The notes beneath the pieces were generated by a model that worked only from the letters and a program-made list of their open reading frames with translations, was not told the origin of the DNA and ran no database searches. DNA of 64,000 nt. Source: Ilumatobacteraceae bacterium. GTDB lineage: Bacteria; Actinomycetota; Acidimicrobiia; Acidimicrobiales; Ilumatobacteraceae. The first letter of the stretch is position 1. Each line of letters starts with the position of its first letter. The stretch lies in assembly GCA_963810675.1 (NCBI GenBank), contig CAWEOL010000014.1:155689-219688 (forward strand), in the 5' to 3' direction. Position numbers and translations under genes: made by a program. Positions 12,058 to 64,000 of this stretch are shown here, piece by piece.

Positions 12058-12059
12058 GA

Positions 12060-13665: not shown

Positions 13666-13702
13666 CGAAGTCCTCCCATTCTCGCTCCACTCTGCCTGGC
13701 TT

Positions 13703-13718
13703 ATACCCCAGGGGGTAG
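13703..13718. promoter_or_regulatory. operator candidate O2 (ATACCCCAGGGGGTAG)
   Basis: Lies in the divergent sqr/cstR-like intergenic region, 37 bp from the sqr start. Confidence 0.55.
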
Positions 13719-13751
13719 AGGAAAACGTCCTGAATCGCCCGGATCGGAACG

Positions 13752-13767
13752 GTACCCCTGGGGGTTT
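13752..13767. promoter_or_regulatory. operator candidate O3, degenerate (GTACCCCTGGGGGTTT)
   Basis: Same intergenic region, 38 bp upstream of the repressor start. Confidence 0.4.
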
Positions 13768-13804
13768 CGGTAACCTGTCCTTTGACTGCAAGGGAAGGAC
13801 CGTC

Positions 13805-14074
13805 ATGGAACTGCCTCAAGAAACACTCGCCGATCTCAAGAAGCGACTGCGACGGGCAGAGGGGCAGGTTCGCGGCGTTGGGGTGATGCTCGACGAAGGT
13901 CGCGACTGTCGAGAAGTCGTCACTCAACTGACAGCCGTCACCAAGGCGCTGGAGCAGGCCGCGTTTCTCCTGGTGGCAGCCGGTCTCACGTGGTGTGTCT
14001 CGGACCCAGAACGGGCTGCCGAAGAGGGCTACGCCTTGGCCGACGTCCAGAAGATGTTCATGAAGCTCGCCTGA
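13805..14074 (+). CDS. CsoR/RcnR/FrmR-family repressor, CstR-like (persulfide-sensing type)
   Basis: 89 aa after GGAAGGA. LKKRLRRAEGQVRGV, Cys35 and Cys64 spaced 29 residues as in CsoR/CstR. The CsoR His position (Cys minus 4) is Gly60. Confidence 0.85.
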   Translation: MELPQETLADLKKRLRRAEGQVRGVGVMLDEGRDCREVVTQLTAVTKALEQAAFLLVAAGLTWCVSDPERAAEEGYALADVQKMFMKLA

Positions 14075-30107: not shown

Positions 30108-30873
30108 CTGAATCGACCGTCGTCTCGACGCTCCAGTGTCAGCGGCATCCCGAAGCATTCGCTGAGGCTGGCCGAGGTCAGCGCCCGGCGATCGGGCCCG
30201 CAGGCCACGACCTTGCCCTCGCGGAGCATCAGTACGTGCGTCATGCCTGGCGGAACCTCGTCGAGGTGATGGGTCACCAGGATCAGCGGCGGTGCAGCCG
30301 GATCCGTGGTCAGTTCGGCCAGCGCCTGCACGAGTTGCTCGCGGCCACCGAGGTCGAGACGTGCGCTCGGTTCGTCGAGCAGCAGGACTGCCGGCTCGTT
30401 CATCAAGGTGCGGGCCAGCAGCACTCGCTGCTGCTCGCCCGACGATGTCGTTGCCAGCGGCCGTTCGGCCAGCCAGGCGACGCCCATCCGCTCGAGGCAG
30501 TGGTAGGGCTCGGAGCCTCGTCGGCCGTCGTCGTAGCGATGCCACCACGGCTCGAGCGCCGCGTACTTCGCAGTCATCACGATGTCGAGGCAGCGAAGCT
30601 CCGGGCGCAATTGCACCGCGAGCGACGGTGACATGTAGCCGATGCGACGGCGCAGCACGCGGACGTCGGTGCGCCCCAGCCGTTCACCCAGCACGCGCAC
30701 GTCGCCAGCTGGACGGGTGCTCGTACATCGCCGCGATGCTCAGCAGCGTGGTCTTGCCCGAGCCGTTGGCGCCCGAGCACCAACCATCGCTGGCCGGGCA
30801 TGACCTTCCACGTCAGCGGCGCCAGGATCGTGCGATCGTCGCGCACGAAGCTGACGTCGACGAGGCGCAACAC
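30056..30873 (-). pseudogene. ABC transporter ATP-binding protein; two extra bases (~30782, ~30717)
   Basis: LRLVDVSFVRDDRTILAPLTWKVMPGQRWLVLG, then ANGSGKTTLL (Walker A), then DVRVLGERLG...SSGEQQRVLLAR (signature), LLLLDEPSARLD (Walker B), VTHH. Start GTG 30873 is tentative. Confidence 0.75.
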
Positions 30874-34559: not shown

Positions 34560-36373
34560 GCGTTTGATGTCAGTTCAGGGGCGGCCAGCGCCGTGTATTG
34601 GTCGATGTGGCCGCGCAACACATCGAGACTCGCCGTCCAGAACGACTGATCCGTGACGTCGAACCCGAAGTCGGCGCCGAGCTCTTCGGCGGAGTTCATG
34701 CCGGCACGCGACAGAACGTCGTCGTACGACTGCTGGAAGTGCTGGGGGTCTTCGCGGTACTTGACGAACAGGCCGAGCCCGAACAGGAATCCGTACGTGT
34801 ACGGCCAGTTGTAGAAGTGGGATCCGTAGTAGTGCGGCTTCACGGCCCACATGTAGGGATGCGCAGTCGACTGATCGAGCCCATCTCCATAGGCGTCGGC
34901 CTGCGCCGCCAGCATGATCTCGTTGAACTCCGAGATCCCGATGGTGCGGCGCTGGCGGCGTGCCATGACCTCGGTCTCGAAGATGAGCCGGCTACGGATG
35001 TCGACCACGGTCTGCACCGCATTGAGCAGGTTGACATCGAGCAGGGCCAGCCGCTCGCGACCGGCGAGGTAGGACAATCCTTCTTCGACCACCAGCGTCT
35101 CGCAGAAGATGCTCGCCGTTTCGGCCAACGCCATCGGCAAGCGCCGCTGCAGCGCGGTGCGCTGGGCGAGTTGGGTGTTGTGGTACGCGTGCCCGAGCTC
35201 GTGCGCGGTCGTCTGCGCAGAATCAACGCTTCCGCTCCAGTTGAGAAAGACCAGCGAGCGGTCTTCGACGAACGGCATGCAGAAGGCCCCGCCACGCTTG
35301 CCGGCGCGAGGACCGGCGTCGATCCATTGCTCGTCGACAGCGCGATCGACAAGCCCGCCCAGACGCGGGCTGTACGACCGGAACGCCTCGCGGACGACGC
35401 CGAGACCGTCCGTCCACGAGATCGCACTCGGTGCGAAGGGCAGCGGCGCAGACAGGTCGTACCACGGAAGCGCTCCGGGGCGTCCATGCAGCCGAGCCTT
35501 GGCATGCATCCATCGGCGGAAGTCTGGAAGCGACGAGTCGACCGCCGCCTGCATGGCGTCGAACGTCGCCCGGCTGACGTTGTTGGCGAACAACGAAGCG
35601 TCGATCGGGCTGCTCCAATGCCGTCGACGGTTGATGACGTTGGCCTCACCTTTCACCGCATTCAGCGCCGCTGCGCAGGCCAGAGCCACCGTCGGCCAGG
35701 CACGCATCTCGGCTTGGTGGGCGGCCTGGCGGACGTTCGGATCGGCGTCGGTCGCCAGACCGCGGATCGCAGCCATCGGCAACGTCTGGGCACCACCAGG
35801 AAGTTCGACAACTTCGCTGAGTTGTGAGGTGACGTCGGCGTGCAACCGCTCCCAGGCCGTCGAACCCGTCGTGCTGAGCTCGGCGTAGAGACCTTCCTCG
35901 GACTCGGCCATCTGGTGGGCGGCCCGCGCCGCGAGGATGTTGAGGGGCCCGCGATGCTCGGCGACTTCGGAACTGACGCCCGCCAGAGCATCGACGCCGA
36001 GTGAGCTGACCCAATCGGCGAGGCGGGCGATGAGCGGTAGTTGCTGTGAATCGACGACATCGAGCTCGCTGGCCAAGCCCTGGGCGGTCTCGTTGAAGCT
36101 GTCGGTGGTGACCGTGGCATAGATGTATGCGGCCATCTCGTTGGTACGCATCTGGGTCTCGTTGACCGCGCGTATGACAGCGTCTGCGACCCGGCCGTCG
36201 GTCTCGCTGACCGGGCGAGTCTCGCATCGGCGAATGTCGAGCTCGTCGAACAGGGCAGTCAGTCGAGTGCAGTCTGCGGCGACCTGTTCGAGAGCGTCGA
36301 CGAACGAGCGTGACTCGAACGATTCGTGCACGTCGGACACGTTCCAGCGAGGAAGCGTCTCGGTGTCGTTCAT
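34556..36373 (-). CDS. M3 family oligoendopeptidase (PepF-like)
   Basis: 605-aa intact ORF with the HELGHAYH zinc motif. Its stop overlaps the rlmN start (ATGA). Confidence 0.85.
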   Translation of the reverse strand: MNDTETLPRWNVSDVHESFESRSFVDALEQVAADCTRLTALFDELDIRRCETRPVSETDGRVADAVIRAVNETQMRTNEMAAYIYATVTTDSFNETAQGLASELDVVDSQQLPLIARLADWVSSLGVDALAGVSSEVAEHRGPLNILAARAAHQMAESEEGLYAELSTTGSTAWERLHADVTSQLSEVVELPGGAQTLPMAAIRGLATDADPNVRQAAHQAEMRAWPTVALACAAALNAVKGEANVINRRRHWSSPIDASLFANNVSRATFDAMQAAVDSSLPDFRRWMHAKARLHGRPGALPWYDLSAPLPFAPSAISWTDGLGVVREAFRSYSPRLGGLVDRAVDEQWIDAGPRAGKRGGAFCMPFVEDRSLVFLNWSGSVDSAQTTAHELGHAYHNTQLAQRTALQRRLPMALAETASIFCETLVVEEGLSYLAGRERLALLDVNLLNAVQTVVDIRSRLIFETEVMARRQRRTIGISEFNEIMLAAQADAYGDGLDQSTAHPYMWAVKPHYYGSHFYNWPYTYGFLFGLGLFVKYREDPQHFQQSYDDVLSRAGMNSAEELGADFGFDVTDQSFWTASLDVLRGHIDQYTALAAPELTSNA

Positions 36374-40270: not shown

Positions 40271-40910
40271 ATGAGCCGGCCGCCCTTGATCGCCGTGCTC
40301 GACTATGGGATCGGGAACTTGCGTTCCGCCCAAAAGGCGCTGCAACGATGCGGGGCCGATGCCCGTCTCACGGTCGACCACAGACTGATCGCCGATGCCG
40401 ATGCCGTGGTGCTTCCCGGTGTTGGAGCCTTCGGAGCATGCATGGCCGCGCTGCCGCGACGCCGATCTCGAAGATGCGGTCGAGGACGCTGTCGACTCCG
40501 GGCGGCCGTTCCTCGGAATCTGTGTCGGGATGCAGATGCTGTTCGATTCCAGCGCCGAGGACGACAGCGCGGTCGGGCTCGGCATCATCCCGGGCAGCAT
40601 TCGTTGGCTGGGGTCAGAGTTGCCTCGACCGCAGATGCAATGGAACCTGTTGACCCTTGCTCAGCCACAGGATCCGATGTTCGCCGGGCTGTCGCCTCAG
40701 GCATGGGTGTACTTCGTCCACTCCTTGCATGCCGTTCCGGCTGATCCCACTGTCGTCGCCGCGACCTGCACGTACGGGGGCGTCGTCAACGCAGCGTTCC
40801 GGCAAGGCAACGTGTTCGCCACTCAGTTCCACCCGGAGAAGTCGGGGGCATGGGGCGTGGCGATGCTCGGCAACTTCGTCCGCCTCGTGTCAGAGACCTC
40901 GACGGCCTGA
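40271..40910 (+). pseudogene. hisH: imidazole glycerol phosphate synthase glutaminase subunit; single frame change at ~40455
   Basis: IAVLDYGIGNLRSAQKAL..VVLPGVGAFGACMAAL (frame of ORF 39815..40744), then PFLGICVGMQMLF...ATQFHPEKSG (ORF 40395..40910). Confidence 0.88.
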
Positions 40911-47221: not shown

Positions 47222-47707
47222 TCAGCGCGACCCGGGATCGCCGGCGGTGGCAGCGCCCGCGAGTTGGGCGAGCTCGGGTGCCTGGCGCAGCGCCTGGACG
47301 ATCCACGCCGGGCTGGCAAGGCTCTCGGCGGCACGGAGCCAACCGATGGCGGTCTCGCGGTCGCCGAGTGCCGCCGCGCTACGAGCGACGGTCAACGCGG
47401 AGATCGGTGATGCCGAACGACGGTACGAACCGGCGGCGTAGTGCGCTGCCTCGTCGTACCGACGGAGCCGCAACAAGATGTCGGCAAGCGTTTGCTCGGC
47501 GTGGGGGTTGCCGGTCGGCAATGGTTGAGGAAGCAATGCAACGAGCGTCTGCAGCGTGGCTTCGTCGGCAGCATCGGGCGGCATCCATCGCGGCGGGCCG
47601 GCGGACGCGAAGGACTCGAGGAGCACGGCGCGAGCCAGGTCGGGACTGGTCTGGTGAAGCTGCTGGTTGGCGCGGAACCATGGCGAAGGGATCTGGTCGG
47701 GCAACAT
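47222..47707 (-). CDS. hypothetical helical (TPR-like) protein
   Basis: 161-aa ORF with high-GC codon bias. This is the last gene of the high-GC block. Confidence 0.45.
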   Translation of the reverse strand: MLPDQIPSPWFRANQQLHQTSPDLARAVLLESFASAGPPRWMPPDAADEATLQTLVALLPQPLPTGNPHAEQTLADILLRLRRYDEAAHYAAGSYRRSASPISALTVARSAAALGDRETAIGWLRAAESLASPAWIVQALRQAPELAQLAGAATAGDPGSR

Positions 47708-47723
47708 GTGTGACAGGTCAGCG

Positions 47724-50457
47724 TCACGCCACGCAGCCGTCTCGGCGAGTGCGGCCGCAGCAACCCCACTGGGCGGCCCCTTCGATTCCCGATGGGCACG
47801 CAGAGTCTTTCATTTCCGTGAGCTGCAGTTCCGCGCCGCCCTCAAGCAGATCCTGCGACAGCTTTTGCTTCGAATCCATGAGCGCGTCTATCTTCTCTTC
47901 CATGGTTCCGCGGCACACGAACTTGTGGACGAGCACGTTCTTTGTCTGACCGATGCGGAAGGCGCGGTCCGTGGCCTGATTCTCGACAGCCGGGTTCCAC
48001 CAGCGGTCGAAGTGAACCACGTGCGACGCCGCGGTCAGGTTCAGGCCGAATCCGCCGGCCTTGAGCGAGATCACGAAGAACGGCGCGGCCTCGTCCTGCT
48101 GGAATCGTTCGACCATGCGCGCGGCGCTGCTTCACCGGAGTCTCGCCGTGCAGGACGAGTCCGGACCGTCCGAACACGGATCCCAGAAAAGACGCCAAGC
48201 GGCGCGGTGTTTCGCGGAACTGCGTGAAGACCAGCATCTTCTCCTGACGGGCGCGCGACCACTTCGGCAATGTCGCGCAGCCGCGCGAGTTTGCCGCTGC
48301 CGGACTCGCTCCAGTCGCCGTCGCCGAGCCACTGCGACGGATGGTTGCAGATCTGTTTGAAGCGCATCAGGAACGCCAGGATCATGCCGCGGCGCTGAAT
48401 GCCTTCGTCCGCGCGATCGAGTTCGCGTCCGAGTTCGTCCACGGCCTCCTGATAGAGGGCCGCCTGTTTGCGCGTCAAATGACAATAGGCCTTCACTTCG
48501 GTCTTGTCCGGCAGATCGGAGATGACCGTCTTGTCGGTCTTCAGCCGCCGCAGGATGTAAGGACGCAACAATTCGCGCAACGGCCCATAAGGATTGTGTT
48601 CGCGCGCAGCCAGACGCTTCGTGAACCGGCCGAATTCCTTCGCGGACCCGAGCAATCCGGGATTGATGAAATCGAAAATCGACCACAGATCTCCGAGCCG
48701 GTTTTCGACGGGAGTGCCCGTGAGGGCGATCCTCGCCTTCGCATCGATCTGCTTGGCGGCGCGGGTCTGCCGCGCGCCCGGATTCTTGATGGCCTGAGCT
48801 TCGTCCAGGATCGCAAGCCGAAACGGAACTTTCAGAAGGCCGGGAAGCCGCAACAGCGTTCCGTAGGTGGTGAGGACCACATCCACATCGGCCAGCGCGT
48901 CCGCGCCGATCTCTTGCAACTCGCGAGCCGGCATCGCCGAGGGATGCGCAACGAGAGTCTTGAGGCCGGGCGCGAAGCGTTCGATTTCGGCCTGCCAGTT
49001 CGCCAACAGCGGATGCCGGCGCCACGAGCAGGCTCGTGCGCCGGCGGTCCGCATTGCCGTCTGGATGCCCGGCGCAGAACGAGCAGCAGCGCCAGCACCT
49101 GCATGGTTTTACCGAGTCCCATGTCGTCGGCGAGGCAGGCGCCGAGACCCAATGACGAAAGCAGGTGCAGCCACCGCAGACCGGTCTGCTGATAGGGACG
49201 CAGGGACGCCTTCAGTTCGCTTCCGGGATCGATCGCGGCAAGAGCCTCCGGACGCCGAAGGCCTTCGAGGGTTTCGGCCAGCCACGGGCCGGCGGTAATG
49301 CGTGACCATTCCGGCGCCTCGCCAGCCCGTCGTCCCTCGACATCCGCGCCGGCGAGGAGCCGCGCGGCATCCGCGAAACTAAGGCCGTTGTCCAGCGCGG
49401 CGGACTCAATCTTCCGGAAGCGGTCGAGCATGCCGCCGAGCTTGTCGCGATCGACTTCGACCCAGCGGCCGCGAATCAGATGGAGCCCGGTGGAGCTTGA
49501 AAGCAACTGGGCGATTTCGGCGTCCGTCAGCGGACCGCTTTCGCCGTCGAGCGTGACTTCCATGCGGAAATCCAGCAACGCATCCTGGCCAATACCCGCA
49601 GGCTTTGCGCCGCCCACGGTCGCCGTGACGCGCGGCCGTGGCGGACGATTCGCTCTCCAGCCGCCGGGCACGCGCACGATGACGCCGCAAGCTTCGAGGC
49701 GCGGCAGGTCCGACAGCAATTGGAAGGCTTCGGCCGGCGTCCATCGCAACGGGTGATAGATCTCTCCCGCATCGACCATGGCCTTGAGCCATGCGCATTG
49801 TTCGGCCGCCCGCTGCACGGGAAGAAGCAGCGAGAGCAGCCGCTGCTTGTTGGCGCTGCCCGCGTATTCGCTGAGCGCGCGTGCCAGGGGCAGGTGCTGC
49901 GCCTTTGCGCCGGCAGACAATCGCGTGGTGTAGGTCGCCAGGAATGCAAATGGCGCGGCGTCATCCCGGCGGTTTTCGGCAAGATTGAAATGGACGCGTC
50001 CCACCAGATTCCAGGCGGGATTCTTCTCCTTGAGAAAATCCTGAATGGAAGCCTTCGATCGGCGAGTTCTGCGTGGAAGGCCGCATCGAGCGCGTCCCAC
50101 AATCCTTGAAGACATCGGCCGGAGGATACTCCGCGCCTGTCATCGGCGGCGCGGCGGCGGCGAGCACTTCGAGTTCGAGCGGCAGGGGCGGGACGCGCAG
50201 CGTCTGTCGGTCCTCGAGATCCGGCAGCGTGCAGACCGCCGTGACGTAACGCGACGCAAACTCCCGCCAGTAAGCGAACGCGGGAGGCAACTCCGTCCTG
50301 ACTTCTCCCGCTCCGAGTTGCAGAAGACCATGACCGTGGCCGCGCGCGAACGCGGCTTCGAGACGTTCGGCAATATCCTCGGCGAGCGGATGCGCTCGTC
50401 CGTCCCTTTGAGCGTCAGACGGCCATGGGGGGTCAACGGTGGAGCAAACGGAATCAT
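47724..50457 (-). pseudogene. SNF2-family helicase with long DUF3670-type N-terminal region; 3'-truncated at ~47805 and at least 7 frame changes
   Basis: MIPFAPPLTPHGRL..., [27 protein letters not shown]2 motifs: [22 protein letters not shown] (I), [22 protein letters not shown] (II), LTGTPVENRL (III), [48 protein letters not shown] (V-VI). Homology stops after ...LQLTEMKD. Confidence 0.85.
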
Positions 50458-50466
50458 TGGTGCGGC

Positions 50467-50958
50467 CTAAGGGTCTTGTTGGCGCCGCGCCGAGTCCCTG
50501 TCGAGCGCTTCTCGAAGTATTCGTTCCGCGACACGGAAATCCGTTTGGCGGATTCGTTCAAAGGCGTCGTTGAGGTCAAGCAAATTGCCGACGGATGCCA
50601 ATTCCAGGACCCCAATAGCTCCGGTTACGATGAGACCTCGCTCCTCTGCGATGCGCCGAGCCTTTCGGTCGTCCGCGAGCAAAAGATCCGCCTTGAGTTC
50701 CAATGCCAGGCTGATGGCTTCGGCTTCGCCGAGCATCGTCAAGTTGAAGCGTTGGATCGATGTGAGATGGAGCTTTGATGGCTAACCAATCATGATGCGC
50801 AGTCATCCATGCGCGGACAACGTCTGGCGTATTATATGAGACAACTCGGCCGCGACCGCAGGCGGAATTACTACAGAATTGAAGAGCGCACGAAGAATGT
50901 CCGCATTTCCGATTCTCACGAGCAGGTTTAGTGGGCTTGAGTCGGATACAACGAGCAT
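50467..50958 (-). pseudogene. DUF3368 (PIN-like) toxin-type protein; two frame changes (~50833, ~50748)
   Basis: MLVVSDSSPLNLLVRIGNADIL..VIPPAVAAEL, then PDVVRAWMTAHHDWLAIKAPSHIDPTLQLD, then LGEAEAISLALELKADLLLADDRKARRIAEERGLIVTGAIGVL. Confidence 0.75.
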
Positions 50959-51230
50959 CAGCGCATGTTAGGGAAGAGCTTCGAAAGGTTTTTGCGATCT
51001 GCGTGGAGATCTTCTAATGAATAGTTCGCTTCAATGCCATGTGCGGCAAGCCATGTCTGCGCCGCGAGAGAAGTGTCCAGTCCGAGGACGCGCGCCACTT
51101 CGCCCGCGGTGAGTTTGGCCGCACGGTATCCTTCGATTGCGAGCGCTTCAAGGGCAGCTCGATCAAGGTTAGGGCCAAATGCACGTTCGAGTGTTTGTGA
51201 GGCCTCGTTTGGCAGATGCAATGTGGACAT
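50958..51230 (-). CDS. UPF0175 family antitoxin-type protein
   Basis: 90 aa, ...ALAIEGYRAAKLTAGEVARVLGLD.... Its TGA overlaps the DUF3368 ATG by one base. Confidence 0.75.
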   Translation of the reverse strand: MSTLHLPNEASQTLERAFGPNLDRAALEALAIEGYRAAKLTAGEVARVLGLDTSLAAQTWLAAHGIEANYSLEDLHADRKNLSKLFPNMR

Positions 51231-51342
51231 AGGTGACGATTATATGTCCAACGACGGGCCGCCTGACCGGATTTGGTGCCAAGGAGTAAGTTTTCGCCAG
51301 GCAGGGCAATCCCAGCATCATCACCCCATCAACACGTGTCGA

Positions 51343-52289
51343 CTAGTCGCCATCCCGTACGCGTCCGGCCAGGGATTGCAGAAAGGCTATTAAGTCCTGT
51401 TTCTCGCCGTCGGTGAGGTGGAGCGGGCGAATTTTGGCGTCGAGACCGGGGTTACGTTGTCCTCCACCATTGTAGAATTCGATCACGTCTTCCAACGTGG
51501 CGAGACTGCCGTCGTGCATGTAGGGAGGAGTGCGGCTCGCGTCGCGGAGAGTCGGCGTCTTGAAGGCGCCGCGGTCTGCGTCGGCATGAGTGACGCCGGC
51601 GCGCCCTTCATCCGTAACGATTCCCGTTCGCCAGGCGATGCCGGTATTGTGGAATTGCTCGTCCGTGAAATTTGGCCCTGCGTGGCAGGCGCTGCAGCCT
51701 GCCTTGCCGCGGAATAACGCGAGCCCGCGTTGCGCGGGTTCGCTAAGAATACGGCGGTCGTATGGTGAATCTCCAGAGAGGATCGTGCGCATGTAAGAGG
51801 CAAGCGCGCGGGAAGCGTTGTCCAGCGAGGGTTCATCGCCGAAGGTTGTGAGGAACTCCGAGCGATAACGGCTCGATCGCAAGAGTTCCAGAATTGTTTC
51901 CGGAGTCATGCCCAGCTCTTTCGGATTGAAGACTGGTTGAAGCGCCTGTTCTTCCAACGTGGCCGCGCGTCCATCGAGCAGAAAACTGGAGCCCCACGCT
52001 CGATTGACAATGATGGGAACGTTTCGCTCGCCACGCGCGCCGCCCACACCCTCGGCAACCCTCCGCCCATCGGTGAATGCTTTTCGTCGATCATGGCAGC
52101 CCGCACACGATAGCGATCCATCTCGTGAAAGCCGGCGATCGTTGAACAACCGCTTTCCCAAAGAATTCTTGCGGGCGTGAGACGGTTGTCTCCGGCACTG
52201 GACGGTAAAGATAGAAGCCCCAGAGGCCACCGTGGTCCTGCAGCATCCAGGACCACGGCAAGGCACAATATGACGGCAAACCTCATCAT
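51343..52289 (-). pseudogene. di-haem cytochrome c peroxidase (CCP/MauG family); one frame change at ~52160
   Basis: Signal peptide MMRFAVILCLAVVLDAA and DNRLTPARI (ORF 51906..52292), then LGKRLFNDRRLSRDGSLSCAGCHD ... CSACHAGPNFTD ... FKTPTLRD..PYMHDGS (ORF 51343..52392). Confidence 0.85.
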
Positions 52290-54385
52290 CACTTCGTAGC
52301 GGAGATTTGCGGAAACAGGTTCTGAAGTTTCCGAACGGCGTTACTTGTTTTGTGCACAACAAATGCGATGCGGCTGCCGTCCGGATGAACACTAGGACTC
52401 CTCAGGCCAACCATGCGAATCCCAGTGCTATACGCCTGGCCGCCATCGACGGGCTGCACCCAAATCTCATCCGAGCGGACAAACAGACACTGCTTTGCCA
52501 TCCTGAGTCCAAGCTCTGCCCATCGTGAAGAACTTCCATGCGGAAGTGCACGCGGCTCACCCCGGATAGCGGGAATACAAAACGGACATCGATCGTGGAT
52601 TGCCTCGCAGGTAGGCAAACGATAAGTTGCGACCGTCCGGTGAGGCCGCCAGAAAGGCTCATATCCGCTTCACGCTTCGATGCGATACAACTCCTTCTCG
52701 TCGCAGTTTGAAGGTCGCGACGGATGAGGATGAGATGAACGGGTCCGTCGGCCAACGGCTGTCCGCAGTACGGAGCGCCGTGTCGTCGCTTCTTGAAGTA
52801 GAACAAGGTACTTCCCATCGGTTGACGAGATCACCGGCCCGCTCACCATAGTGAAGCGGATCGCTCGCGCTTGAGTTTCTGTATCGAACAAACGCGCGCC
52901 GGTTGGCGGTCCGGAACACGGATCGACAGGTCCGCCAACAGAACCGATTTGCCGTCCGGCAACCAGCCGCGGAGCTCATCTCGGTCACATCGGTCGGAAG
53001 CTCGCGCTCGTTGCGCGGAATCGAGGTCATGGATGACGAGCTCTGTTCTCATCGCAAATGCCAGAAGCTTCCCATTGGGCGACCAGGCCGGTTCCACGGG
53101 AGGTTCGTGCCGGAATGGGGCGGAGATTTCCTTTGGGGAATTCTTCAACTTCCAGGTTGAAGCATCCACTTCCGCGACGTAGACTGAGTTCTGACTTTCA
53201 TCCTGGAGCAAGTATAAGGATCCATCTCGGGGAAATCCCAGGCGCTCACGGAGATCCTGAAGACAGGTTCTCCTTTACGATCTCGGAGAGACCATCGGTT
53301 TCCCATCGGCGACAGGGATCGAGTCGAGCTTGCGTTCCCACTTACAAAGACGACTTTGGAACCGTCGGGGGAGAAAAACGGTATGTTAAGGCGCCAGTTG
53401 GGCCACGAGTTCATTTTCGACGGAACCATCCACCGCGATGGCGTATATGGCGCTGTCATTGCCTTGCCACCTTCAGATGGGTAGGTAAGCCAACGACCGT
53501 CGGAGAGAAGTTGCCAACGTAGGTGTCGGCCCCGCACCACGGCGTTAGGATGTTTAGGTTCCCGGTCTGGAGCGATACGATGCCGATTTGCCAGAAGAGA
53601 TCGATTGGAAGCCGAACGCAGCCGAACCAACGGGCACGCACCAAGGGCAGCCAGCTTTCCATCCGGACTGATCGCGGATATCTCGAAGGACGAGTATTCG
53701 GTGCTATTAGGAGAGATCGTCTGCTCGTCTGTTCCATCTATATCGATTGTCCGGATCTCATGAAGGCCGTCCTTGCCTACTCATAGACGACCCGCTTACC
53801 GTCCGGGGTAGAGTGCGGGAAGGTCGATTCCGCCGTCCGAGGGAGAGGGCGTGGCCCGCAAGTTGCGGTCCTTCTCTAAGGAAACATCATGAATCCAGAG
53901 TCCAGTCTTAGACGCCGTCACCAGGTAGCGGCCATCCGGTGAAGGCCATCACTGTATGGTCGGCGCCCGGGGTATTGCCAGTCCAGATCTTGCTGAGGAC
54001 GATCGGTTTGGATGCAGACCGTACATCTCCCCCGAGCCGTGTCCGCGCAACGGACACCGCTTCCTTTTGGTCGCTGTAGTCTTTCAGCACACGGTCATAT
54101 GCTTTCTTCTCATCTTCCCCTTTGCCAAGCTTTCCGTACAATCGCCCCATTTCGAGGAGCGCCTTTCGCTCCTGCGGTGTGATTGGCTTCGGCGTTGTCC
54201 ACAATCTTCTGATAGAGCGCGATCGCGCCCTTCGGGTCGCCATCAACGAGTTCCTTCTGCGAGGCTGCCTTTAACTGAACGTTCAGGTCTGGCTTGGTCT
54301 TTTGCTGAGCCGCGATGACCGCAGCGAACGTGACCAACGCCAGGGTTACCATCGACCACCATCTCTTAGTTATGCGCTTCTCCAT
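52289..54385 (-). pseudogene. TPR + PD40/WD40-like beta-propeller (TolB-like) exported protein; many frame changes and in-frame stops
   Basis: MEKRITKRWWSMVTLALVTFAAVIAAQ, TPR-like ALYQKIV / LLEMGRLYGKLGKGEDEKKAYDRVLKDY. PD40 motifs: FFSPDGSKVVFVS, AWSPNGKLLAFA, VHPDGSRIAFVV (ORFs 54110..54610, 53908..54246, 53145..53630, 52843..53211, 52289..52618). Confidence 0.65.
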
Positions 54386-54464
54386 GATCTTGTCCTCCTG
54401 AACGAGCACGGTAAGGCCGTGGCGTACCGGAGGAATCTTCGCCTTGTCACGGGTTTGTCTTTGT

Positions 54465-55151
54465 TCATCCATCGAATCGATATCCTGCGCCGCGAATACT
54501 GAACAGATAACGCGGTTCCGCCGGAGTAGGTTCAATTTTCTTCCGCACGTTGGCAATCTGGTTATCCACGACGCGGTCGGTGACGAAAGTGTCCTGTCCC
54601 CAAACGTCATCCAACAACTGTTGCCGCGTCAGGACGCGTCCGCGCTGCCGCACGAGAGCGGCCAGAAGTTTGAACTCCACGGGAGTGAAACTCACGGCCG
54701 CTCCGGCACGGCGCACCTCATGCCGCGTGAAATCCACTTCGACATCGCCGAACCGATAGATCTCCGGAAGCTCTCCCGACGCGCGGCGCAACGCTGCTTT
54801 GATCCGCGCTCGCAGCTCTCTCGGACTGTAGGGCTTCGTGACGTAATCGTCCGCCCCGATCTCCAGGCCGAGCACTTTCTCGGCTTCCTGTGAGCGTGCC
54901 GTCAGCAAAATGATCGGCAGGCGCAAACCTGCCCGGCGAAGATCACGGCAAACTTCGAAGCCGTCTTTGCCGGGCAGCATCACATCCAATAGGAGGAGGT
55001 CGAAAGCGCCTTCGCGGGCACGGCGCGCGGCTTCGTTGCCATTGTCGACGGTTTCCACGGCGTATCCCTCCTGCTTGAGATCGTCTTCCAGCGCCATGGC
55101 GATGCCCGTCTCATCCTCCACCACCAGAATGCGCGCGGTCTTTCCGGTCAT
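54465..55151 (-). CDS. OmpR/PhoB-family response regulator
   Basis: 228 aa intact. ILVVEDE, LLLLDVMLPGKDG, KPYSPREL, and a winged-helix C-terminus ending YRF. Confidence 0.92.
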   Translation of the reverse strand: MTGKTARILVVEDETGIAMALEDDLKQEGYAVETVDNGNEAARRAREGAFDLLLLDVMLPGKDGFEVCRDLRRAGLRLPIILLTARSQEAEKVLGLEIGADDYVTKPYSPRELRARIKAALRRASGELPEIYRFGDVEVDFTRHEVRRAGAAVSFTPVEFKLLAALVRQRGRVLTRQQLLDDVWGQDTFVTDRVVDNQIANVRKKIEPTPAEPRYLFSIRGAGYRFDG

Positions 55152-57119
55152 CCTTTGTTCACCCGATCTGCCATCGGCAATTGAATCGTGAATGTTGTTC
55201 CCCTGCCGGGGGCGCTTTCAAGAACTACCTCGCCCCCGTGCGTGCGGACGATGTGCTGTGCCATTGCGAGTCCGATGCCGGTGCCGGAAACGTTCAGCTC
55301 TTTCGACGCGGCGCCGCGTACGAATTTTTCGAATATGGTCCTTTGCTCTTCGGCAGGAATACCGAATCCGTCGTCGTGAACATGAATCGCCACGCCATTC
55401 CCATGCCGTGACAAATGGACGCCAACGACTAGAGAGTTCGGCGAATACTTCACGGCATTCTCCAGCAGAGTTCCGAATCGCGCGCGAAAGCGCTTCGCGG
55501 TTGGCGCGGATCGTGGAGGATTGCGGTTTGACGCCGTTTGAGGTGAATTCCACACGGTGCGCGCCGGGATCCTGAGCGAGGCTCGATTCAAACTCCGCAA
55601 CTGCAGCCTGAGTCAGTTCGACAGGATCGACGGCCTCAAGAGATTGCGCCGTTCGTCCCGCTTCCATGCGGCCGAAAGCCAGGAGCCCTTCGACGAGCCG
55701 GTGAAGACGTTCGGTTTCTCGCGCCATGACGGTGTAATACTGACGCCGGCGGTCGTCCGCGAGGACCGTGTTGTTGGCCAGGAGTTCGGTCATGTGCCGA
55801 AGGGCGGTCAGCGGTGTTCGGAATTCGTGGGACACGGCCGACACGAAGTCCGATTGAAGTCGCGACACCGCAAACTCGCGCCCGGCCGCTCGCAGCGTGA
55901 AGTAGCCGCCGAGCAGCGTAAGCAGTGCCATTAATGCAAGTCCGGCCGACAGAAGACGGCGGCGTGCCGTGATCTGTGCGGAATCGGCATCTGGATGTGC
56001 GCTGGCGACTTGAATGGTCCAGGGAAGACGTGTTTCGCCAGCGCTTCGTGTGGCCGCAATTGTATTGGAAGAGAAGACGGGACCGAAGACAGGATGCTTC
56101 TCCGTGTCCGCGAGCGAAAGGTTGACTCCCTGCTTCTCCCAGATATCCTTCCATTGCGACTCCACATAACCGGGGCCAACGACAAAAGCCGTGAGCGTGT
56201 TTCCTGAAGCTCGCTCGAGGGCCGTCACCGAACGATCGCCGATCCAGATGCTGCGCCATTCTGCTTCCTGCGACCCGGCTGACGGCCCTGACTGCCAGCG
56301 GGTCCACAGCTCGTTGACGTCCTGTGTCAGAGCCAGCTGATCGGGAGATGGCGCGCCAGGCTGCGCTTCCGATGGGAATCGGCGCGGCGCGTCCTCAAGA
56401 TAGAGTTTGTAGGACTCGCGGTCCAGCAGCCAGCGTCCGTTCTCGAAGTCGGTGTTCAGAGCCCTGGACGCCTGCAGCAGCTCGGCAGTGAGTCCGAGTT
56501 CGCCCAGTACGTCACACTGTCTTTCGCGTGCCAACAGGTCCACCGGAGTCCCGGCGATGTTCATCGGCCCGAATCGCTCCAATTCCCGGTAGGCTGAAAG
56601 CGCCTCCTGGAGCTGGTAATTCTTTCTATAGCTCCGTGCAAGGTGCAACCAGGCTCCGGTGCGCGTAAGGAGATCGTTGGAGCGGGTGAGCTCGCGATAC
56701 ACACCGATAGCGCCCGCGTAATTCGCTTCGTATTCCAGCGCTTCGCCTGCATCAAAGACCCCGGGCCGGGGGCCACCCGCGGCAGGCAACGCAGGAACAT
56801 AGAGAACCCGACCAGACGGCTGTGCGTGAACGCCATCCAAGCTGAACGTGACGAGGACAGTGTCATCGGGCAGCTTTTGAGGATCGCTTTCAAGTTTGGC
56901 GAATCGCTCACTCTCGCCTGCAAGACGCTCTCTGAGAGCCGCGGCAACGACCTCCGCAGATTTCTCAAGCCTGTCATGCAGCCGCTGAGTCTCCAGTTCC
57001 TGATCCTGTTCGAGCAGTTTCCAGCTCAAGACGCCGAGCGCCGCCACAGGTATCAGGGTTACGATCAGGAACAGAGTCAACACGCGGCGCGGTGCGCGCG
57101 TTAACCGTCCGAACTGCAT
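55148..57119 (-). pseudogene. sensor histidine kinase with large periplasmic sensor domain; one extra base at ~55478
   Basis: TM helix VLTLFLIVTLIPVAALGVL, second TM LSAGLALMALLTLLGGYF, H-box SHEFRTPL (ORF 55218..57119). Then LLENAVKYSP, DDGFGIP, GTGIGLAMA (ORF 55148..55600). ATGA overlap with the regulator. Confidence 0.85.
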
Positions 57120-57700
57120 GCCGAGACCTCCGCCACAGAGTTGGTGAGAGTCTATATCGCGCCTGTCACGGCGTACTCATGCAATTGTCACGAGTTTGTC
57201 TGCGTCTGCAGGCGGGATCGCTCAAAGTTTGCCTTGTGCGAGCTTCTTGCGAACTGCGCGATTCCACACATCAGCGCACCCGTCAGGATCATCTTGATCG
57301 CAGAGGCCGGTGCGCGGTTCCTGTTCGGCATCGTATTGCTCGGAGCGCGCGTTTATGCCCGAGTTCAAATCGTGAGGTCCCTTCACTTGCCTGAGCGATG
57401 GCTTGGACCAGGCGATTTCCGAATGCCATGAGTTCCGGTTTGCCGCCATGTCGTTGAAGTGTTTCCGTCAGACGCGCGAATCAAGATGGCTAGGTCAAAA
57501 ACTCCAAAACTCCGCAGTGTTCTTTGATTCTTCTTTCAGTGACGACGGGGTAAATCTTGTCGGTCGTCGTAAGGTTCAAAGCCCAACCTCGCTGTTGCAA
57601 TCACTCGGGTTAAAGGCATTGGTGGCCAATTGGTGGCCGGTAATTTTCAGATTGTTGACCACCAAAGAGTGCGGGTGATTTTGATTTCTTCGTTAACGCA

Positions 57701-57730
57701 AAGAAAAAAGGCCGGTTGTTCACCGGCCTT
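57701..57730 (-). terminator. rho-independent terminator directly after the tRNA fragment
   Basis: On the minus strand: AAGGCCGGT-GAACA-ACCGGCCTT followed by TTTTTT. Confidence 0.75.
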
Positions 57731-57731
57731 C

Positions 57732-57775
57732 AATTGCGGGGGAGGATTTGAACCTCCGACCTTTGGGTTATGAGC
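57732..57775 (-). tRNA. 3' half of a tRNA-Met (CAT anticodon loop to acceptor end), fragment only (copy A)
   Basis: Minus strand: GCTCATAACCCAAAGGTCGGAGGTTCAAATCCTCCCCCGCAATT (anticodon loop CTCATAA, T-arm GGAGG-TTCAAAT-CCTCC). No D-arm or 5' acceptor follows. Confidence 0.8.
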
Positions 57776-57804
57776 ACAGTTTAATGATGGCCGGTCCTTT
57801 CGTT

Positions 57805-57944
57805 TCAAAGCAGTTGGTGGCTGTTGATGTCCGGTTTTACCTCTTGTTCTCGAATTTCTGTGAGCATTTTGTGAGCAATAATCGGCAACAAATGGACTTT
57901 CATAAGGGTGTGTATTTCGGCGTCGGTAGGCTGAGCTGCTATTC
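57805..57944 (-). pseudogene. possible tyrosine-integrase N-terminal (SAM-like domain) remnant
   Basis: The tail of ORF 57805..58140 reads AEIHTLMKVHLLPIIAHKMLTEIREQEV, resembling the integrase N-terminal motif. Only ~45 codons remain before the tRNA fragment. Confidence 0.3.
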
Positions 57945-57971
57945 GGCCATCCTTTATATATAAGGATGGCC
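57945..57971. other. perfect 10-bp hairpin GGCCATCCTT-TATATAT-AAGGATGGCC
   Basis: Seen directly. It sits inside the 111-codon ORF 57805..58140, which argues that the ORF's 5' part is not coding. Confidence 0.7.
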
Positions 57972-58141
57972 TACCGGTGGTGAATTTTGAATACTCCGTT
58001 TGTTCCTTGAAGAGACGAAAACAAGCCTTTTTGCGACTATGGCGTCGCATCGACCTCTCGCAACTCTTCAGTCGCTGCATTGCCTTTTTTCGGAAGGCCT
58101 TCGGGCACATCCGACGCCCACTTGTACCGCTTATCCGCAAG

Positions 58142-61100
58142 TCAGAAACTGATGCGAAGTTGTCCCTGCAGCTCGCGAGTCAGCGTGGACTTGCCGCTGA
58201 TCACGCCAAAGTTGGCGTTGTTGATATTCAGATTCGGACTGTTGGGCTCGGGATGGTTGAGTACATTCGTTGCGTCCACGCGGATTTGCAGGCTCTTGGA
58301 CTCTCGGATCTTGAACGACTTGCCCATGCTCGCGTCAAAGCGCCAGCGCCCCGGTCCGTCCACCACACGCTGGCCCAGAGTGCCCCGCGTTCCGGGCAGG
58401 GGATTCTGAAGAAGAATCTGGCCGGTCTTGGCATCCGCGATAGCGTTGAGGGTGCATGCGTCGCGGAGGCCCTGTTGCGTCGTGACCCTGGCGCACTGCG
58501 GATCGTGGACCTGCGTGAAGCTTGCCGTATCAAAGTAAGTCCCGCTGGGACCGCCGAGGAACTGAACCTTGCCGCCCTTCAGGTCGAAGGGTCCGACAAT
58601 ATCCGCAGTTCCGTTGTTGTAGAGCATGTTCTGGGCGGCGATGTCCAGCGGCTGCTCCGCTGTTGAGGTTCACGATCCAGCTCATCTGCCAACCCTCGAT
58701 GATTCGCGCCACAACTCCCGAGCTGTTACCGAAGAAGAACTTGTTGGGTCCGAATCGGCAGCGCGAACGTTCCGTTGGTGCGGAAGTCGTGCACGCGCGT
58801 GTCCGGCAAGCACTGCATAGTCGGCGTGCCGGTCCAGCGGGTCCGTGAACACCTGTCCAAGCCGGTCGGCACCAGGGAAGCCCGCGCCCAGGTTCTTGCT
58901 CCAGGTGTAGGTCGACTGAGTGCTGACGCCGTGCACCGGCCGCAGCGTGACCTGCGCGTTCAGCGAGTGGTAGTTGTTGCTGAAATTGTTCGTCATGAGG
59001 TTTACGGCGCCGAACTGCGGATTGGTCACGATGAAGTTTTCCGGAAATCCGTTGTGCCGGAGCACGCTGCCCTGAACGCGTGCCGGAATGACCGGCAGCG
59101 TGGGATTGCTGGCGGTCGCGTAGTTCAACGTGTTCAGCGAGGCGGCGAGCGCCATGTAATTTCCGTTGGCAAGGTTGGATTTAAACGTGGTGGATTGCCG
59201 CATGTGCATTCCGGCCGTCTGCAGAACGCCATTGAACGGCTGTTCCCACCGGTCCGAATCCCGCGCCCGCGATGTTGATTCCGTTGAATATCTGGTCCAA
59301 CAACGGCGATTCATCGCCGCTTCGCACCGCGTCGAAGGCTTCCTTCAATCCGTTGCTCCGGAAGTTGGGCACATTGATGTTGTTCGCCGCGCTGCGCTGC
59401 TTCCTGCCCAGCGTGCCGATGTAGCGCAGGTCCACCGACACTTTCGACCCGACGCTTCGCGTGACCGACAGCGTGAGGTTCTGCGCGTAGGGAGTCACAA
59501 GGTTCGGATCCGGAATATAAATCTGCTGGCTTCGCTCCGTCAGGGGAATGGGCTGCATTGGCTTGTAGTAAGATTGGGCACCGGAATCAACGACGGCAGC
59601 TTCGTGAGATCGAGATAGGCATTGGCGCTGCTGTCCCCGGTATACGTGACGTTGTTCGTGCTGCCCGGCGCGTTGGTTTCCTGCACCATGGAACTGTATC
59701 CGTCCCCAATCTGATACGTGATCTGATATCCGCCGCGCACGGTCGTCTTCCCCTCGCCAAACCACGGAACCTGCCAGGCAAAGCCAACGGCGGGACCAAA
59801 ATTGTTCCAGTCGTTCGGATACCACGCGATGCCGGGATTCGGGGAGTTCTTGCCGACATACTGGAACACCGTCGGGTCGGCGCGTACTCCAGGGCTCATC
59901 CAATCGTCGAAGCTTCGTCCCGAAATTCCGAAAGCGGCGTTGCCTCCTCCAACCGGGAGCGGCATCAAGCCGTTGGCTTCGTACGGCACGCCATAGTAGT
60001 CGTAACGCAGGCCGAGGTTGAGCGTGAGACTCTTCATCACCTTCCAGTCGTCTTTGAAGAAGAAGGCTGAACTCATTGATCCGCATATCGCGAACCTTGC
60101 CCGGGTACGTTCTTGTAGTCGTCGAATGCGTCCAATTTCTCGGGGTCTTGCATGTAGTAGTACTGCGTGATGCTGCCGACCGATCCGGCAAGGAAACTCA
60201 GCAGATTCCGCATTCTCACGTTGTTTCCCGTGGCGGTCGTGCCGGCAAGTCCCGGGCATGTTCGTGCGTGCTGATTGCCGCTGGCGATATCTGGGAAAGC
60301 GTGAGGTCGCCCCCCGTGACGCGCGGGATGGCGGTGGTGCCGATGCCGGCGTCGAGTCCCCAGGAGCCGCCTCTGCGGATTTCACCGCCGAATTTGAAGG
60401 CGTGTTTGCCTTTCGTCCAACTGAGCGTGTCGCCGTACTGCCACAGCACCGTGTGGTCCGAGAAACGTCCGCGTATTCCCGCCGCCGAGCGGCTGGTTCG
60501 CCTGGAAGTTCACCTGGCCAAGTCCCAGTCCCACGAAAACCGGGATATCCGTTGAAGTTGGGAAAGAACTGCCTGCACGGCCTCGCTGGGATTCGGGATC
60601 GTCAGCCCGTTCCACTCTGTGAACCCGGTGCGCCGCATCCCCACACGGGCTTCATTGACGAGCGTCGGCGACAGCGTCGATGTGAAAGTGACGGAGAGGT
60701 GCTGCGGATGCCGGTAACGGCTGCCCGAAAAAGTGTCCGGCCACGTCATCAAGTTCGCACCGCCGGCGGACCGTTCATAGGTGTAGGTTGCCGCCGACCT
60801 TGTGCGACGCGTTGAAGTTGTGATCCAGCTTGACGTTGATCTGCTTGCGCGCGACGCCGGTCCCGCCAAATCGCGAATATGCCTTCGTTGCCGCCTCTCA
60901 CGCGCGAACCCACCGGTAGCCCGCCGTATTCAAGCCATCGCCGATCTCGTAGTTGTTCGGCAGCGGCATCTTGCCCAGGAGCTTGCTCACAAATCCGGTC
61001 GAATCCATGGCCTTCCGGTTTGTGTCCCAGGGCGCGCCCTGCACCACGGCGTCGGAACAGTCCGCTTTGGTAGGGACGTGTTCTGCAGCGGACCGAATAC

Positions 61101-62281
61101 GCTCGCGTACCGGAGAGTGCCGGTAAACGGGTTGGTCGTCGGGTTCTGGTCCGCTCCGGATTCGTTGCCGGCCTGAGCGGATTACCAACTCCATCCACCA
61201 CCGCAATCGTCGGAGTAGTGCCGGTGGCCTGAGTAACTTGAAATGCGTTTCCGTTATTCCACGTGTCGAAGTACCGGAAAATGCCATTCCGCGCGCACGG
61301 CGTCAGCACCGTAGGGTTTTGAACCAGGCGCTCATTGACGATCATGCCGTCCCACAGCGCGAAGAAAAACGTTTTGTTTTTGACGATCGGCCCACCGAGG
61401 CTGCCCGTGTACTGGTTTCTGTTGATCCAATCCTTGGGAGTGGGCTTCCATGCGCCGGTTCTTGGATCGACGGCCCTGTTGTTGGCCCAGGTGTTGGCGT
61501 CCAACGCGCTGTTTCGGACGGACCACACGGCGCTGCCGCTAAACTGGTTGGTTCCCGATCGCGTGAAAACCTGCATCTGTCCGTTGCCGCGCCCCATTTC
61601 GGCATCCACGGGCGCGACGATCAGGCGCATTTCGCCGATCAGGTCCGGACTCATGTACGTGGACGGCGTCATACCCGCTTGCATATTGCGCGCCGCGCCG
61701 CTGGACTCCATGCCGTCCCGCGTCACATTGACGCTGCGCACAAACAGGCCGGCAAAGGTTCCGGTCACACCGTTGGCGTCCATGCGCGTCCCCGGCAACG
61801 TATCCAGCAGACCCATCACGTTGTTGCCGACGATGGGCAGGTCCTGCACCCTTTGTTCGGAAAGCACGCTTCCAACCGACGAACTCGATGTCGCCAACAG
61901 CGTGTCCACCGCGACAGTGACGTCAACCGACGTCCCTACCGAACTCAGGCTCAGCGTGAAGTTCAACCGGATCTGTTGATCGTTTCCAAGTTGAACGTCA
62001 CTGTAAGTCTTGGTCTGAAAACCAGGCAACTGCGCGCTGACCTTGTACACTCCCGGCATCAGACTGGCAAAGTTGTACGCCCCCGCTTCGTTGCTCAACA
62101 CGGTCCTGACGATTCCGGTCGCATTATTCGTTGCGGTGACCGTTACGCCGGGCAGCACCGCGCCTGTGGCGTCATCAATTGTTCCGCTTATCCTGGCAAC
62201 GCCGGATTGAGTGAACGCCGGCATGGGTGCAATTAGAATTAGAAAAAGCAACGCTGCCGTGAGGGCAAAGAGATTTCTCAT
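58142..62281 (-). pseudogene. CarboxypepD_reg-domain TonB-dependent receptor (~1,380 codons); many frame changes
   Basis: GGGAGGA RBS. MRNLFALTAALLFLILIAPMPAFTQ, ISGTIDDATGAVLPGVTVTATNNATGIVRTVLSNEAGAYNFASLMPGVYKV, C-terminal ...ELQGQLRISF. Homology hops across ORFs 60749..62356, 60510..60869, 59540..60385, 59181..60191, 58682..59314 and 58142..58627. Confidence 0.8.
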
Positions 62282-62401
62282 GGTTCCTCCCAGTCCTGAT
62301 TGGGTTTTCTTGAAGTGGTGCGGGCGGAACTTAACGTCATCGGCCCATTTTTGCAAGGATTTTCGGATCTGCGGTCAGCAAGATCTAGGGATTTAGAGGG
62401 A

Positions 62402-62445
62402 AATTGCGGGGGAGGATTTGAACCTCCGACCTTTGGGTTATGAGC
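62402..62445 (-). tRNA. second identical 44-nt tRNA-Met 3' half, fragment only (copy B)
   Basis: Matches 57732..57775 base for base on visual comparison, in direct orientation. The flanks differ on both sides and no 5' half is present. Confidence 0.8.
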
Positions 62446-62526
62446 CAAAACTTTGATTGGACGCGACTGTCATTTCAACCACTTCAGTGTCGTCCTTTGG
62501 AGTCTGTTTCGGCCCCTTCAGGCGCG

Positions 62527-62562
62527 TTTGCCCCCGATTTTGCCCCCGGCTTTGCCCCCGAG
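62527..62562. repeat. 3 x 12-bp tandem repeat TTTGCCCCCG(AT/GC/AG)
   Basis: Seen directly, 82-117 bp from tRNA fragment copy B. Confidence 0.85.
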
Positions 62563-62624
62563 TCCGGATGCACGTTCTCCTGTTACCGCTTGCTGGGCGT
62601 GCATGCACTTCTTATACTTGATGC

Positions 62625-62867
62625 ATGCAGTACACCATCCGTGGCATCCCTCCGAAAGTGAACAATGCGTTACGCGCGCGAGCGCGGGCAGCCGGCAAGA
62701 GCCTGAATGAGGCAGCCATCACCGCGCTGGCGGAGGGGACTGGCGTGATTGGAGGTCGTCGAAAACGGCGAAGCCTCGCGGATATCGCCGGGACCTGGAA
62801 GCCGGACAAGCGCTCTCGAGCCGTTCTCGCCGCACAGGACCGCGTGGACAGGAATCTCTGGAGGTGA
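62625..62867 (+). CDS. ribbon-helix-helix (FitA/VapB-like) antitoxin
   Basis: MQYTIRGIPPKVNNALRARARAAGKSLNEAAITAL. Its stop overlaps the vapC GTG (GTGA). Confidence 0.75.
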   Translation: MQYTIRGIPPKVNNALRARARAAGKSLNEAAITALAEGTGVIGGRRKRRSLADIAGTWKPDKRSRAVLAAQDRVDRNLWR

Positions 62868-63246
62868 AGGTCGCGCTCGACACCAATCGATACGTCGATC
62901 TTTGCAAGGGTGTCGCCGGGACCGTCGCGCTCCTGGAGGAAGCTGAAGAAATTGCATTGCCGTTCGTCGTGCTCGGTGAGCTTCGAGCAGGTTTCGCTTA
63001 CGGGCGACGGCAGGCTGAAAACGAGCAGATACTGCGGAGATTCCTCCTGAAGGACGGCGTAAACGTGCTTTTCGCCGACGACCAAACCACACACCACTAT
63101 GCGTCACTGTTCGGCAACTTCGCAAGCGAGGCACACCTATTCCAACGAATGACATGTGGCTTGCGGCCGTGGTCTTGCAGCACAATCTGGCCCTCCATGC
63201 ACGTGACAAACATTTCGATCACCTGCCGCAACTTGTCCGCGTCTGA
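62864..63246 (+). pseudogene. vapC: PIN-domain VapC toxin; one frame change at ~63108
   Basis: VKVALDTNRYVDL...FVVLGELRAGF, then QLRKRGTPIPTNDMWLAAVVLQHNLALHARDKHFDHLPQL in the -1 frame with a stop at 63244..63246. Confidence 0.75.
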
Positions 63247-63258
63247 GAAGTCGCAACG

Positions 63259-63711
63259 TTACGACGCGCCATCGCCCCATCGCCGACGGGTAGACGGGTA
63301 GATACAGAAGTGAAATAGATATTGGTTCAGCCCTGAACGCTGTTTGCGCATAACAGGCAGGACGGCGCGGGTTACGTTCATCGGGCCGACGAGACTGGTC
63401 GACAACTGTTGCTCCATCTGCTCGGGCGTCGGCTCTTCAAAGAAACCTGCATAGAAGTCTGCGGCATTATTGACCAGCACTACTATTCGGCCAAACCGAT
63501 CAACGGTCGCCTTAACCGCGGACTCCGCATCAGTAGGTTTGGTGATGTCCAGTTTCACGATCAAGAGGGCTGAGGATTCCCCAACGGCCTTGGCCACCTT
63601 TTCAATATTGCGGCCGGTAGCGACCACTTCATGGCCAACGGCAAGAGCCGCCTTAGCGATATCCACCCCCATGCCGCGCCCGGCACCGGTGACGAACCAA
63701 ACTTTGCTCAT
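63259..63711 (-). pseudogene. SDR family oxidoreductase, N-terminal ~130 codons only
   Basis: MSKVWFVTGAGRGMG, NNAA, VGPMNVTRAVLPVMRKQRSG. The homology decays at ~63270-63330 and no YxxxK region is present. Confidence 0.7.
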
Positions 63712-64000
63712 GTTTCTGTTCCTCACCATCAACTTAACCCGCTTTTGACCGCTCCGTCGCACTTGTCCATTTTTTAACGATATCCCTGGCGCCTCACACC
63801 AGCACGTTCTGATGAAGTCTTGATCCTAGATGCAGGAAAGTCCCTGATACTGGGGAGGCTCTGAAGGCGAAGAAGTATCCCGTTGTCGAGATCAAGGCTC
63901 GCGCACCAGGCAGGACTGGTGCGCGACATCTATTGCGCTAGAGCTAATCGGATCGAGAAAATCCGAACCTCAGACTTCCTGCGCACAAGGCGATAGCCAA

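Follow-up and report, generated by a model that had tools for sequence, protein, structure and literature searches.

A Blunt and Most Probably Artificial Join of Ilumatobacteraceae-like and Acidobacterial DNA That Cuts a Gene on Each Side

Does the stretch of DNA analyzed here come from a single organism? The stretch (hereafter the window) covers 64,000 nucleotides of contig CAWEOL010000014.1 and is numbered from its first letter. The initial annotation, made without database searches, had reported an abrupt compositional and taxonomic break at positions 47,708–47,806, and both composition and homology now place a break there. An unsupervised Jensen–Shannon scan of oligonucleotide (tetranucleotide) usage with 3-kb flanks reached its maximum over the whole window, 0.054, at ~47.6 kb (median 0.019, 95th percentile 0.033). 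Similarly, third-order Markov models trained on positions 1–44,000 and 52,001–64,000, with the tested region kept out of the training, put the changepoint of the log-likelihood at 47,785, the ratio flipping its sign between 47,601–47,800 and 47,801–48,000. Tetranucleotide correlation, a check that the initial annotation had proposed, gave the same division: 4-kb blocks within 1–48 kb correlated with one another at r ≥ 0.87 but with the blocks right of 48 kb only at 0.66–0.82.

The GC content had also been described as dropping at ~47.8 kb, and this was not the case. Plain GC was 0.62–0.71 from position 1 to ~50.4 kb, stayed at 0.62–0.67 through the SNF2 helicase gene that adjoins the break and fell to 0.52–0.61 only beyond ~50.4 kb. 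Consequently, the sliding-window GC profile that had been suggested does contain a step, but at ~50.4 kb, and what changes at 47.8 kb is the oligonucleotide usage and not the plain GC.

How closely can the break be located? We observed that the homology from the left and the homology from the right end almost at the same base, which places the join of the window at 47,803/47,804, two bases that can be attributed to neither parent. The blastn alignment to L002, a relative of the left side, has 47,802 as its last matching window base; the alignments to two acidobacterial SNF2 loci, L003 and L004, have 47,805 as their first, and that to a third such locus, L005, begins at 47,826. On the minus strand, the sequence at the join reads ...GAAATGAAAGAC, then T, then CTGCGTGCCCAT..., with no linker, and the window contains no Ns. 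A breakpoint of this kind can thus be placed to within a couple of bases without reads, by determining where homology stops on either side. Among the JGI metagenome contigs, there was no match to a 30-mer laid across the join, and exact look-ups of four window proteins (the 161-aa open reading frame, the response regulator, YjbR and HisF) likewise found none of them on record.

The DNA left of the join (segment A, positions 1–47,802; GC 0.654) contains few frameshifts and is an Ilumatobacteraceae-like (Actinomycetota, Acidimicrobiia) chromosome piece. Its tetranucleotide profile correlated at r = 0.99 with those of L001 (71.5 kb) and L002 (87 kb), two public contigs (ENA) that bear relatives of the gene left of the join. 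Both contigs are syntenic with the window at the DNA level, with 75–88% identity from 37.1 kb to 47,769 (L001) and 47,802 (L002). The actinobacterial markers that had been named for this side were all recovered. The mshD gene is full length (TIGR03448, 258 bits against a cut-off of 163), mycothiol being an actinobacterial thiol; DUF3499 was matched by Pfam, a regular expression having given no match; and hisC, hisB, hisH, hisA, hisF and hisI were found along with trpE. Furthermore, MalQ, an M3 oligoendopeptidase, tryptophanase, GH94 and a sulfide quinone reductase (SQR) matched their profiles end to end in a single frame.

Two observations on segment A are recorded here in their own right. The SQR is a 740-aa open reading frame (11,584–13,806, minus strand) that spans the whole of the NCBIfam model "type III sulfide quinone reductase, selenoprotein subtype" (566 bits); the same frame runs on into a DsrE2-like sulfur-carrier domain, which makes it a fusion or else a pair of genes sharing a frame, and a TauE exporter lies near it. 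At 35,303–35,392 (minus strand), ARAGORN reported a "tRNA-???" with a two-base anticodon, located within the M3 oligoendopeptidase gene, which we rejected as a false positive.

What is the gene that meets the join from the left? The initial annotation had a neighboring gene starting at 47,707, which proved to be a misreading of the start. The alignment of homologues to this frame passes the ATG at 47,707 by a good margin and reaches ~47,803. The gene (47,222–47,802, minus strand), which is of an M50-peptidase-domain/TPR-like family and was delimited by homologue alignment and tblastn, is truncated at its 5' end, and that ATG is merely the earliest one left in its frame. The homologues are 71–75% identical and 270–330 aa long and carry an N-terminal PF02163 (Peptidase_M50) domain; the two that are named are from Ilumatobacteraceae. 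The window has only the C-terminal ~193 codons, and roughly 100–135 N-terminal codons are missing. With P0121, one of the homologues, as the query, tblastn matched residues 97–290 only, and the missing N-terminus had no tblastn match anywhere in the window. In L001 and L002, on the other hand, the gene extends past this point; next come pyruvate phosphate dikinase (PPDK), AIM24 and TerC and, at a greater distance, dnaG and a sigma-70 factor.

The gene that meets the join from the right is cut as well. It encodes an SNF2 helicase with the domains DUF3670, SNF2-rel_dom and Helicase_C (47,805–50,457, minus strand) and is truncated at its 3' end, as seen from Pfam, a C-terminal comparison and a map of its frames. 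Its N-terminus is complete, since MIPFAPPLTPHGRL.. matches the first residues of the homologues, in which MxxxAPxLTPHGRL is conserved. At the other end, the D codon of ...LTEMKD occupies 47,805–47,807 and is followed by 26 codons up to a stop at 47,724–47,726. The initial annotation had both the coordinates and this count right, but the codons that it took for nonsense are the truncated M50-family gene of segment A read in the wrong frame: when this apparent tail and its stop (47,724–47,804, minus strand) were translated in three frames, another frame aligned to Ilumatobacteraceae proteins. The estimate that about 20 C-terminal codons of the helicase are missing agrees well with its relatives. 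Of the 40 best homologues, 39 continue past LTEMKD for 17–21 conserved residues, (D/E)ELLKLVALDLxAA.., and the one exception is an incomplete sequence; the window gene lacks this tail and has unrelated sequence in its place. All three domains are present, but they are distributed among about 8 frame segments, and the gene cannot be read as a single intact frame that includes the conserved tail.

The relatives of the SNF2 gene also continue differently from the window. In L003–L005, its C-terminus is followed within 0–4 nt by a conserved gene of 318–341 aa, for which tblastn gave no match anywhere in the window. This gene lies at 1,374–2,399 in L003, at 1,951–2,907 in L004 and at 5,209–6,207 in L005; it has no Pfam match on record and shows the N-terminal motif FWGxAWCDNLExYSDFxNRLPRGR. 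Its likely role in the acidobacterial relatives is that of a functional partner to the SNF2/DUF3670 helicase. The C-terminal 403 residues of the window helicase are 77–86% identical to their best homologues, and those that are named are proteins of Terriglobia and Vicinamibacterales MAGs. With the same domain order and this level of identity to acidobacterial members, the gene belongs, judged by its sequence, to the DUF3670–SNF2 helicases of Acidobacteriota, bacterial SNF2 helicases in which the DUF3670 domain is N-terminal. Here, however, it appears as a broken, truncated copy, set apart from those helicases by ~7 frameshifts, by the loss of the C-terminal 17–21 residues and by the absence of the partner gene of L003–L005.

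The remainder of the right side fits the same origin. Segment B (47,805–64,000, the window end) is Acidobacteriota-like, has a GC of 0.645 in the SNF2 gene and 0.581 beyond it and is dense in frameshifting indels. Its tetranucleotide profile correlated with those of acidobacterial loci at r = 0.86–0.95. Although the SNF2 stretch has nearly the GC of segment A (0.645 vs. 0.654), its oligonucleotide usage correlated at r = 0.91 with the rest of segment B and at 0.78 with segment A. The Acidobacteria-like genes that had been listed for this side (a CarboxypepD_reg TonB-dependent receptor, PD40, UPF0175 and DUF3368) were confirmed by Pfam, the PD40 repeats as fragments, and a di-haem peroxidase and a two-component pair were present in addition. 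The receptor gene (58,145–62,293, minus strand) has its Pfam OMP_b-brl_4 match split over several open reading frames, and its best genome matches are Acidobacteria gp5 AA63 (80%), AA66 and Terriglobia and Sulfopaludibacter MAGs. The histidine kinase (55,148–57,119, minus strand) occupies two frames, and Pfam matched its HisKA domain in a different one from its HATPase_c domain. Around the receptor, we found no synteny with acidobacterial genomes past the receptor gene itself, and the reference genomes gave no support for the linkage of the SNF2 gene to the receptor. A taxonomic assignment of the proteins on each side, another of the checks proposed at the outset, thus gave Ilumatobacteraceae on the left and Terriglobia, Vicinamibacterales and Acidobacteria gp5 on the right; the best hits do not come from the same lineage.

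Could the two sides also differ in the quality of their sequence? We counted the frameshifts in the contiguous 10.3 kb of segment A beside the join, where there was 1, and in the receptor, SNF2 and kinase genes of segment B, where there were at least 21. The results show a rate of 0.10 per kb in segment A and 2.05 per kb in segment B, a difference of ~20-fold (binomial p = 9e-6). The receptor gene has at least 13 frame changes in 4.1 kb when compared with the intact 1,384-aa open reading frame of L006 (82% DNA identity). The SNF2 gene (2.65 kb) has about 7, of which 4 fall in the C-terminal 1.9 kb and ~3 in the N-terminal part, and the histidine kinase has 1. The first frameshift of segment B is encountered 311–316 nt from the join. 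For these counts, frame changes were tracked by homology, as GC3 by codon position together with the longest open reading frame per position discriminated too weakly at this GC, and plain tblastn with a full-length homologue crossed the frameshifts and gave misleading low-identity HSPs with stops.

The damage in segment B is essentially confined to indels. Only two in-frame stops were flagged, one between two compensating indels and one at a segment edge, so that there is no clean nonsense codon, and the amino-acid identity of the frame segments to their relatives is ~80%. This pattern fits consensus errors better than gene decay. Segment A is not free of errors either. A single extra C in hisH (plus strand; 40,440–40,460), which gives CTGCCGCGAC vs. 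the expected CTGCGCGAC, splits the gene over two frames at ~40,454; no other frameshift was detected in the 10.3 kb beside the join. Farther away, at ~30.7 kb, an ABC-transporter ATPase gene (minus strand; 30,690–30,790) carries two indels ~90 nt apart, one of them an extra G in the Walker A GGG run, and the contrast between the segments is consequently quantitative and not absolute. L001 and L002 themselves have many split genes; a three-way alignment gave 22 non-3n gap events unique to L001 and 66 unique to L002, which indicates that the reference contigs are also indel-prone assemblies. The window as a whole would seem to derive from an indel-prone, long-read-type assembly, and the higher indel density of segment B probably reflects a much lower read depth there. 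A jump in frameshift density can in this way serve as a proxy for a discontinuity in coverage or quality, and here it would suggest a change of depth at the join.

Does the join carry any signal of a biological event? The initial annotation had seen no terminator, inverted repeat or att-like sequence at the junction, and our search led to the same view. No tRNA gene was found at the join, no terminator-like site lies nearer to it than ~120 nt, and the repeats flanking or marking it do not go beyond chance-level short matches. No integrase was found among the annotated genes, which on the right side means a Pfam survey of 10 selected open reading frames. Of the features that mark the boundary of a genomic island or integrative element (a gene for an integrase or transposase, a target site such as a tRNA gene or att, direct or inverted repeats on its flanks), these searches found none at the junction. 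A 16-nt inverted repeat that is 94% complementary does have one arm in each parental segment (47,668–47,683 and 47,900–47,915). We rejected it as a junction signal, for it is probably due to chance, with a rough estimate of ~0.1 expected per kb at this GC.

Could the foreign DNA nevertheless be a genuine insertion? In that case, at least 16 kb of acidobacterial DNA would have entered the M50-family gene of an Ilumatobacteraceae chromosome by illegitimate recombination, in a very recent inter-phylum transfer, and would now be decaying. The sequence is continuous and without Ns, the many broken genes of segment B are what one would expect of foreign DNA in decay, and the insertion would merely have disrupted one non-essential gene. 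As in a genomic island, moreover, a block of foreign composition and taxonomy adjoins a core his/trp operon. The boundary at the join, however, differs from that of an island in that the searches described above found no integrase, tRNA gene, att-like or direct repeat or IS end there. The SNF2 gene of the donor is also cut in mid-domain, so the recombination would have had to cut donor and recipient genes alike. This would call for an illegitimate, end-joining-like event without mobile-element machinery, a reading that we regard as very improbable. The composition of segment B is wholly unameliorated (r up to 0.95 with acidobacterial loci), and its damage consists almost entirely of indels, with at least 21 frame changes, no clean nonsense codon and ~80% identity per frame segment; under neutral decay, bacterial mutation spectra lead one to expect a far higher ratio of substitutions and stop codons to indels. 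Finally, contiguous DNA should share one consensus quality across the boundary, yet the frameshift density differs ~20-fold at the same nucleotide. Taken together, these observations make a genuine transfer extremely unlikely.

The window might also contain more than one artificial join, the SNF2 gene (47.8–50.46 kb, GC 0.645) being a third fragment distinct from the lower-GC DNA beyond 50.46 kb. The Jensen–Shannon scan indeed shows a further peak of 0.040 at ~50.5 kb, where the GC steps from 0.645 to 0.581 (50,400–50,550). But the step coincides with a natural gene boundary, at which the N-terminus of the SNF2 gene is complete and the upstream DUF3368 gene reaches its own stop 9 nt away. The SNF2 segment also correlates with the rest of segment B (r = 0.91), and both parts are Acidobacteriota-like with an equally high indel density. 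We therefore rejected a second join at 50.46 kb, on the strength of the gene boundary and the intact N-terminus, and consider it very unlikely. The step at 50.5 kb, which separates the SNF2 start codon from the stop of the DUF3368–UPF0175 toxin–antitoxin pair, looks like natural gene-to-gene heterogeneity.

We conclude, with a probability of roughly 0.93, that in this window a piece of an Ilumatobacteraceae-like chromosome (segment A) and unrelated acidobacterial DNA (segment B) have been joined bluntly and by no biological process. As in a chimera, the oligonucleotide usage changes abruptly at one point, the lineages on its two sides are different, and both of the facing minus-strand genes are cut at the same nucleotide, with their missing parts absent from the window; past the breakpoint, synteny is lost on both sides, the relatives of each parent (L001 and L002; L003–L005) continuing differently. 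Because the change interrupts both adjoining genes within their coding sequence, the join is almost certainly an artefact of assembly, binning or concatenation. The initial annotation had likewise preferred a chimera or an artificial concatenation to an inter-phylum insertion, and all of the tests that were run (taxonomy, cut genes, synteny, mobile-element hallmarks and frameshifts) favor the artefact. It is plausible that a metagenome assembler, probably working on long reads, bridged two organisms, for example via one chimeric read. On the other hand, two contigs of a contaminated bin may have been concatenated during the construction of the sequence or of the window; any choice between these two technical routes would be an inferred one.

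Chimeric contigs and contaminated MAG bins are the class of error that is targeted by GUNC (PMC8201837), metaMIC (PMC9661791) and ResMiCo (PMC10174551). The window resembles the inter-genome chimeric contigs of this class in its abrupt change of lineage and composition, its cut genes and its lack of biological junction signals. By their published descriptions, these detectors work from mapped reads or from lineage statistics over a whole genome; in the present case, homology alone sufficed to locate the breakpoint to 2 nt, and the discontinuity in coverage is suggested only by the indel density. The significance of the finding lies mainly in quality control, and the source genome or bin deserves to be flagged as chimeric or contaminated at the join. 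In biological terms, treating the window as the DNA of a single organism would be wrong, as it would suggest an actinobacterium with a TonB-dependent receptor or the horizontal transfer of an SNF2 defence gene.
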